From a virus (Duplodnaviria; Heunggongvirae; Uroviricota; Caudoviricetes), in the IMG/VR virus record IMGVR_UViG_2859821903_000003, positions 1 through 58,025 of that record: 58,025 nt of DNA; one strand, 5' to 3'. The notes below the pieces were generated by a model that saw nothing but the letters and a program-made list of their open reading frames with translations, did not search any database and had not been told where the DNA came from. A program made the position numbers and the translations under genes. This document shows positions 42,880 through 43,204 of this stretch, piece by piece; the stretch's first letter is position 1, and each line of letters opens with the position of its first letter.

Positions 42880-43035
42880 TTACTCCTCAGGTTCGTAAGC
42901 TGTGAAGACAGCGACCTCCGTCTGGCCGGTTCGGATTCGTACCTCGCAGAGGTCTTTCCTCGTTACCAGTGCCGTCACTATGACGGTTAAACAGATGACG
43001 ATCAGGGCGATTAACATCGCCTTTTGCTGCTTCAT
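42880..43035 (-). CDS. hok: Hok/Gef-family type I toxin (HokD/RelF-like, 51 aa)
   Basis: MKQQKAMLIALIVICLTVIVTALVTRKDLCEVRIRTGQTEVAVFTAYEPEE; an in-frame upstream extension to 43092 exists. Confidence 0.8.
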   Translation of the reverse strand: MKQQKAMLIALIVICLTVIVTALVTRKDLCEVRIRTGQTEVAVFTAYEPEE

Positions 43036-43204
43036 AGCCTGCTTCCCCTTGCCTTTCGGCACGTAAGAGGCTAACCTACATTTGTGAGACATAGATTGGG
43101 CCTCAGATTAATGTTAAGCGTCTTGCAGGACGCGAAATGTTAACTGGGGCTTTTCTCTATCTGCCTTTCAGTGTTCATGCCTGAGACAGATAGCCTCAAG
43201 CACC

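Follow-up and report, generated by a model that had tools for sequence, protein, structure and literature searches.

A hok/mok/sok locus with complete RNA-level control elements, parted from its promoter by an IS629::IS911 insertion in a lambdoid prophage

The window analysed here, i.e., the whole stretch of 58,025 nucleotides, is an IS-riddled lambdoid prophage with three copies of IS629, one IS911 and one IS1, and also contains a cI-like repressor gene, three tRNA genes, and rusA next to IS1. The locus under study is a hok/mok/sok toxin-antitoxin locus that is split by IS629 copy B, the copy that harbours IS911. The features, with their positions in the window, are:

42786–43204, minus strand: body of the hok mRNA, running from the putative nt +2 down to its terminator; leader, mok/hok and 3' UTR are complete as judged from Rfam, the terminator and alignment to six relatives
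42818–42830, minus strand: fbi element CCUCAACGCACCC, to which the 5' tac is paired when the full-length mRNA is closed, according to the MFE fold
42880–43035, minus strand: hok CDS, 51 aa plus stop, intact, Pfam HOK_GEF
42880–43092, minus strand: mok CDS, 70 aa, an N-terminal in-frame extension of hok
43049–43077, plus strand: putative Sok promoter, TTGCCT-17 nt-TAACCT, in position and sequence as upstream of sokW in 933W
43084–43154, plus strand: gene for the antisense RNA Sok, about 71 nt, placed by alignment with sokW as annotated in 933W
43194–43204, minus strand: tac element GGUGCUUGAGG, 5' end of the hok mRNA, which now abuts the IS629 IRL
43205–44246, plus strand: left part of IS629 copy B, comprising IRL, orfA, the ALIL frameshift pseudoknot, and an orfB that contains an in-frame TGA (43822–43824)
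44247–45495, minus strand: IS911, 1249 bp, within IS629 orfB and with its transposase genes directed toward hok
45496–45766, plus strand: right part of IS629 copy B, with IRR
45774–45802, minus strand: displaced hok promoter, TTGGCG-17 nt-TAGAAT, from a consensus scan (9/12 matches)
45835–46521, minus strand: QueH-family gene, which in this prophage type natively adjoins hok on its upstream side (Pfam QueH, E=1e-65)
56907–58025: integrase gene

The toxin frame had been described in the earlier note, which did not give its strand (minus), as an intact Hok/Gef-type ORF of 51 aa, and this description is borne out by the match to Pfam HOK_GEF (E=3e-23, 81.6 bits against a cut-off of 22). Hok, with the sequence MKQQKAMLIALIVICLTVIVTALVTRKDLCEVRIRTGQTEVAVFTAYEPEE, starts at an internal ATG at 43035 of the 70-aa ORF, and is 100% identical to the RefSeq protein HokD (WP_000813254.1) in E. 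coli JB2. The NCBIfam Hok HMMs score below threshold (48.5 against a curated cut-off of 73), and a name based on NCBIfam was dropped because all of its matches fell short of the cut-off. The in-frame upstream extension of 19 codons, also pointed out earlier, is real and corresponds to Mok, in the layout known from phage 933W, where mokW (213 nt) and hokW (156 nt) are annotated with one common stop codon. The mok Shine-Dalgarno sequence, GAGG, is located at approximately 43101–43104, and the exact 70-aa Mok protein is present in 4420 blocks of the public collection. Codon 47 of hok is TAC followed by G (42894–42897, minus strand). According to a preprint, the hokB mRNA undergoes A-to-I editing by TadA, which produces a Tyr-to-Cys replacement needed for toxicity, and the situation is similar in hokC, hokD, and hokE (10.1101/2025.08.07.668861); the TACG context at codon 47 may be the corresponding TadA editing site.

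Upstream of the hok ATG, 169 bp remain before IS629 (43036–43204), in agreement with the figure of about 170 bp given earlier, and these 169 bp constitute the complete transcribed leader. The leader is matched by the Rfam model RF01794 at 43205–43030 on the minus strand, over model positions 1–157 of 157, and since the score is 114 bits with E=4e-26 (gathering threshold 59), a chance match is excluded. Position 1 of the model coincides with the first base of the IS, which means that the IS lies directly against the transcribed leader, at its 5' end, and does not cut into it. Although RF01794 carries the name “sok antitoxin”, it matches the hok-sense strand and runs, at its 3' end, up to the hok ATG; in practice, the model describes the hok mRNA leader, while the real Sok lies on the opposite strand within 43030–43205.

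At the RNA level, the locus appears to be fully equipped. In the predicted MFE fold of the restored 420-nt RNA, nt 1–12 (tac) pair with nt 376–388 (fbi), and both elements are invariant in an alignment of the window locus with six relatives (hereafter alignment A1). Long-range closure of this type is the defining trait of hok mRNAs (PMC9841398). An intrinsic terminator follows, with a stem at 42811–42794 and then a T-run. When 100–600 nt of IS-derived sequence are added to the 5' end, tac and fbi remain paired in the predicted folds, and the 3'-truncated form is likewise predicted to keep its local tac stem with such an extension. Weak matches to isrK (27.7 bits, gathering threshold 50) and CsrC (13.7 bits) at 42790–42872 were discounted, since their scores do not reach gathering and the hok 3' UTR forms its two hairpins at the same place.

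The possibility that partner genes are missing from the locus, raised in the earlier note, is contradicted by the presence of an intact antisense sok gene. The whole gene, including promoter and terminator hairpin (43049–43154, plus strand), resides on the hok side of the IS. Sok spans the mok Shine-Dalgarno sequence and start codon (ATG 43092–43090), ends 50 bp short of the IS, and has a predicted fold of –28.1 kcal/mol, consisting of a single-stranded 5' tail, a long hairpin, and UUUU. An antisense promoter, for which a search had been proposed, can be read from the sequence at 43049–43077; it is conserved in alignment A1, scores under the threshold of the consensus scan, and is presumed to be active. 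The Sok promoter is aimed, in the sense direction, at the IRL and orfA of IS629 (43049–43260, plus strand), and read-through past the Sok terminator would transcribe a dead IS629 transposase frame. Nor is a relBE-type partner to be expected, since the QueH-family gene is the native upstream neighbour and is still in place: it ends about 180 bp before mok in 8/8 uninterrupted loci.

The insert spans 43205–45766 and amounts to 2562 bp, of which the IS629 portions make up 1310 bp once IS911 and one AGG copy are subtracted. As reported earlier, IS629 begins at 43205, and the IRL, TGAACCGCCCCGGG, has its first base exactly at this position. The terminal repeats of copy B are identical at 14/14 positions and then at 23/25, and its ALIL frameshift pseudoknot is recognised with 120 bits. 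Copy B is nevertheless a defective element, owing to the TGA in orfB and the insertion of IS911. At position 618 of the IS alignment, copy B has T where the two other copies in the window have A, and it differs from these copies at more than a dozen positions overall. Its OrfA variant is very common (15163 blocks in an exact protein look-up), and the same type of look-up returned no record of the IS629–IS911 fusion ORF. IS911 is bounded by a 3-bp target duplication, AGG, at 44244–44246 and 45496–45498; it is 99.9% identical to elements annotated as “IS3-like element IS911 family transposase”, and contains the Pfam domains HTH_Tnp_1 and rve.

The original state of the locus can be reconstructed from relatives that lack the insertion. 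Eight uninterrupted loci were retrieved by means of the exact Mok protein, and when 43204 is joined in silico to 45767, the window aligns to all eight with zero gaps and 99.1–99.4% identity over 1159 bp. This gap-free rejoining onto empty sites implies that the insertion deleted nothing and duplicated nothing. In the hok sense, the junction reads GAGTTAAGTAGAATGGCTGCG–IS–GGTGCTTGAGG (in short, GCTGCG–IS–GGTGCTT), and the relatives have GAGTTAAGTAGAAT(G/T)(G/C)CTGCGGGTGCTTGAGG at this site, with GCTGCGGGTGCTT present in all relatives of alignment A1. Copy B shows no 3–4-bp target-site duplication, and its flanks, ...GCACC and CGCAG..., share no repeated base. IS629 normally duplicates 3–4 bp, and a duplication is visible at only 21/47 sites in O157:H7 (PMC3271280). 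Adjacent deletion and recombination between IS copies are the usual reasons for an absent duplication (PMC11708052), and both can be dismissed as the cause at this site, because the flanks are exactly contiguous. On a speculative view, an insertion that is free of duplication and yet perfectly conservative could reflect integration of IS629 without staggered cleavage of the target.

The exact hok–IS629 junction was not found in species-representative genomes (34-mer and 24-mer scans), in viral contigs, or in metagenome contigs. A 240-bp junction query against 5426 complete E. coli genomes gave two-piece matches only, in which an IS3-family element is present near the hok leader at another position. 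As far as these collections show, the junction is private to the source lineage. In E. coli LH13-b (NZ_CP100525.1, locus 1440–1770), an independent IS629-like element is located about 60 bp upstream of the –35 box of a related hok, in the same orientation and with the IRL end toward hok, and leaves the promoter intact. In 25 complete E. coli genomes, in chromosome or plasmid records, the left end of an IS3-family element and a hok leader are no more than a few hundred bp apart, and the occurrence of such ends near hok leaders may point to a regional insertion preference.

The other mobile elements of the prophage have left traces of their own. IS629 copy A (33861–35169), which abuts an esterase gene cut by IS629, is flanked by the duplication GAG, and copy C (48517–49826) has none. 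Copy C truncates a DnaC/IstB-like replication gene (47908–48498), which encodes 196 aa compared with 248 aa in uninterrupted relatives, and an adjacent deletion or rearrangement at this copy is likely. IS1 (40575–41342; IRL with one mismatch at 40575, InsB-like ORF at 40824–41327) is inserted between a DUF968 gene and a RusA-family ORF. In the same region, which also takes in 39875–40749, the ORF for the Q antiterminator comprises only 120 aa and matches positions 1–74 of the 220 positions of the family; the late-regulatory region of the prophage looks inactivated. Three phage tRNA genes and the sRNA STnc100 are found at 37374–37890 on the minus strand, where they follow Q and a DNA methylase gene, an arrangement that in Stx phages precedes stx, and no stx-sized gap is present in this region. 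A match to the IS009 RNA family is located at 20897–21095 on the minus strand.

What the insertion parts from hok is only the promoter. The –10 box and its surroundings, GTTAAGTAGAAT, are invariant in the window and the six relatives, as is CTGCGGGTGCTTGAGGCTATCTG, which follows the –10 box. The insertion point is 7 nt past the –10 box, and the promoter is now 2562 bp away. In hok of plasmid R1, the –10 box occupies positions –12 to –7 (PMC9841398). From the promoter geometry, the start of the Rfam model, and the analogy with R1, we infer that +1 is the G at 45767, which immediately precedes the IS, and that +2 is the G at 43204. With +1 and +2 placed by the R1 geometry, the IS would lie between the first and the second nucleotide of the hok mRNA. 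The earlier note correctly described the locus as cut by IS629 upstream of the toxin frame, and this cut, which splits off the promoter, matters for function. Its suggestion that 5' control elements may be missing can be retained in part: the RNA-level elements are intact, with the Rfam model covered from end to end and tac and fbi in place, and it is the linkage to the promoter that has been lost, the promoter itself surviving at 45802–45774. With intact upstream elements taken as evidence against a loss of 5' control, as in the earlier note, the interpretation offered there is largely refuted at the RNA level, and upheld for the part that concerns promoter linkage.

Transcription toward hok from within the insert would have to start far upstream. 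In the hok sense, no promoter-like site was found over the final ~850 nt before the IS ends (44058–43205), also when relaxed criteria were applied, and under such criteria an outward promoter at the IRL end of IS629 or a hybrid promoter at the junction can likewise be discarded. Further up, the only hok-sense candidates are the displaced promoter and a weak promoter-like site (8/12 matches) in the IRL region of IS911 (45477–45450). The displaced promoter is directed, in sense, through the IRR of IS629 into IS911, and the minus-strand path contains one weak terminator-like hairpin (45757–45745). In R1, single mutations in the –10 box abolish both transcription of hok and toxicity (PMC9841398).

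Based on these data, we consider that the locus is a complete hok/mok/sok module of the hokW or ancestral-hokD type, which has been disarmed by a dead IS629 carrying IS911 about 7 nt past the –10 box; a probability of roughly 0.7 is assigned to this reading. The native promoter would fire into the right end of IS629, and because no hok-facing promoter is found in the last ~850 nt either, correctly initiated hok mRNA would no longer be made, so that the toxin should be silent or represented by rare read-through transcripts only. Sok, which has a promoter of its own, would still be transcribed, and such read-through transcripts would be neutralised by it. Hence, it is most likely that hok is not transcribed while Sok still is. 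The outcome would be a disarmed addiction module, i.e., an orphan antitoxin next to an unexpressed toxin, a state that would fit a prophage decaying under IS expansion.

Because the tac–fbi closure persists in the 5'-extended folds, a read-through RNA might behave as a hok mRNA restrained by Sok. The continued transcription of K-12 gef/hokC despite its IS186 also speaks against silencing, although in that case the IS is downstream of the gene (PMC3562002). It is therefore conceivable that hok/sok still works, by means of a 5'-extended RNA that originates from the displaced promoter, the IS911 promoter, or both, and that is folded, processed at its 3' end, and controlled by Sok. Both of these promoters are directed toward hok, a single weak terminator-like site stands in the path, and the tac–fbi pairing as well as the local tac stem are predicted to survive extensions of 100–600 nt. 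Set against this, polymerase would have to cross 2.56 kb that are partly antisense to the IS629 genes, the IS911 site is weak, and the order of co-transcriptional folding from the 5' tac, which is part of the R1 mechanism (PMC9841398), would change. In view of these obstacles we regard a working module as unlikely. A neutral insertion, by which the IS would have landed in dispensable DNA since the prophage hok was already inert in its host, as has been reported for several chromosomal hok loci, is another unlikely alternative. It would be in line with the location of 62% of the O157:H7 IS629 copies within prophages (PMC3271280), and with the five IS copies in the prophage of the window. The regulatory elements are, however, 99% conserved relative to many uninterrupted relatives and Hok is unchanged, which speaks for constraint until recently, and the Hok homologs from varied locations that were tested in a preprint were toxic (10.1101/2025.08.07.668861). 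Moreover, neutrality concerns selection and not structure, and it is compatible with a disarmed module.

That the IS629::IS911 block is an assembly artefact, produced by misplaced repeat copies over a truly uninterrupted hok locus, is very improbable. The lack of a target-site duplication and the failure to find the junction elsewhere, whether in representative genomes, viral and metagenome contigs, or the 5426 E. coli genomes, speak for an artefact. A collapsed or misplaced repeat should, on the other hand, not differ from the other copies at more than a dozen positions, nor should it have a nonsense codon of its own and harbour an IS911 that is properly flanked by a 3-bp duplication, and a missing duplication carries little weight when only 21 of the 47 O157:H7 IS629 sites have one (PMC3271280). 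A more speculative thought, to which we give little credence, is that the locus has been kept because orphan Sok acts in trans as an “anti-addiction” RNA against prophage or plasmid hok mRNAs, or, alternatively, that hok has become wired to IS transcription. In the former case, the targets would be hok mRNAs from related prophages and plasmids, whether incoming or resident, and in the latter, with hok dependent on read-through from IS911 or the displaced promoter, expression of the toxin would report on the activity of a transposase promoter.

For the disarmed module that we favour, the implications mainly concern annotation. The ORF would be labelled in annotation as an intact “HokD”, even though it is probably unexpressed with its promoter uncoupled. 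The locus would represent a clean natural case where, in a type I toxin-antitoxin locus, an IS spares all control elements at the RNA level and removes transcription initiation only. It would also add a 5'-side example to the disabling of hok loci by IS elements, for which 3'-side insertions had been described earlier. Otherwise, this is an ordinary feature, composed of a known toxin-antitoxin family and a known kind of IS-decay event in a degraded prophage, and no open question hangs on an IS-split hok/sok locus.

Among known systems, the closest counterparts are hokW/mokW/sokW of 933W and the “hokD” prophage loci of E. coli, which feature the same promoter, tac, Sok target, 70-codon mok over a 51-codon hok, and fbi. 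At the DNA level, the window locus is about 92% identical to Stx2 phage 933W and 98% identical to E. coli JB2. A slight difference from these relatives is seen in the mok leader, with KGKGKQ in the window and KGKEKQ in 933W. Unlike in 933W and JB2, the promoter in the window is parted from the body of the transcript by the 2562 bp of IS629::IS911.

The K-12 loci offer two partial parallels. A comparison with the relB-relE-hokD region of Qin, as proposed in the earlier note, leads to the opposite picture, since homology to K-12 stops at about 43049, just upstream of the hok ATG, and it is the K-12 form that is truncated. In Qin hokD (relF), the hok CDS and the 3' UTR are nearly the same as in the window (97.4% identity over 42786–43049), but leader, mok, and sok have been lost to the insertion of relBE (PMC6379469), whereas the window keeps all three and has QueH upstream. 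With leader and sok present, the window locus falls outside the truncated hokD class, and K-12 hokD is a truncated form of the ancestral 70-codon arrangement that the window locus has (PMC6379469). The other parallel is gef/hokC of K-12 with IS186, where an IS is likewise found beside the toxin frame, the regulatory architecture of the mRNA is disturbed, and the antisense gene is kept (PMC3562002). In hokC, IS186 is on the downstream side, where it interferes with fbi and with 3' processing, and transcription of the gene persists (PMC3562002); in the window, the IS is instead at the 5' end, around the inferred +1/+2, and fbi is intact.

With hok/sok (parB) of plasmid R1, the window locus shares the same predicted logic, i.e., tac–fbi closure of the full-length mRNA, a tac stem in the 3'-truncated RNA, and a Sok that covers the start of mok (PMC9841398). 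The sequence has diverged from R1, mok and hok share one reading frame in this subfamily, the locus sits in a prophage and not on a plasmid, and the likeness is drawn from sequence and predicted folds. Since the promoter is not contiguous with the transcript, the window locus is a member of the hok family by descent and, in structural terms, a disrupted allele.
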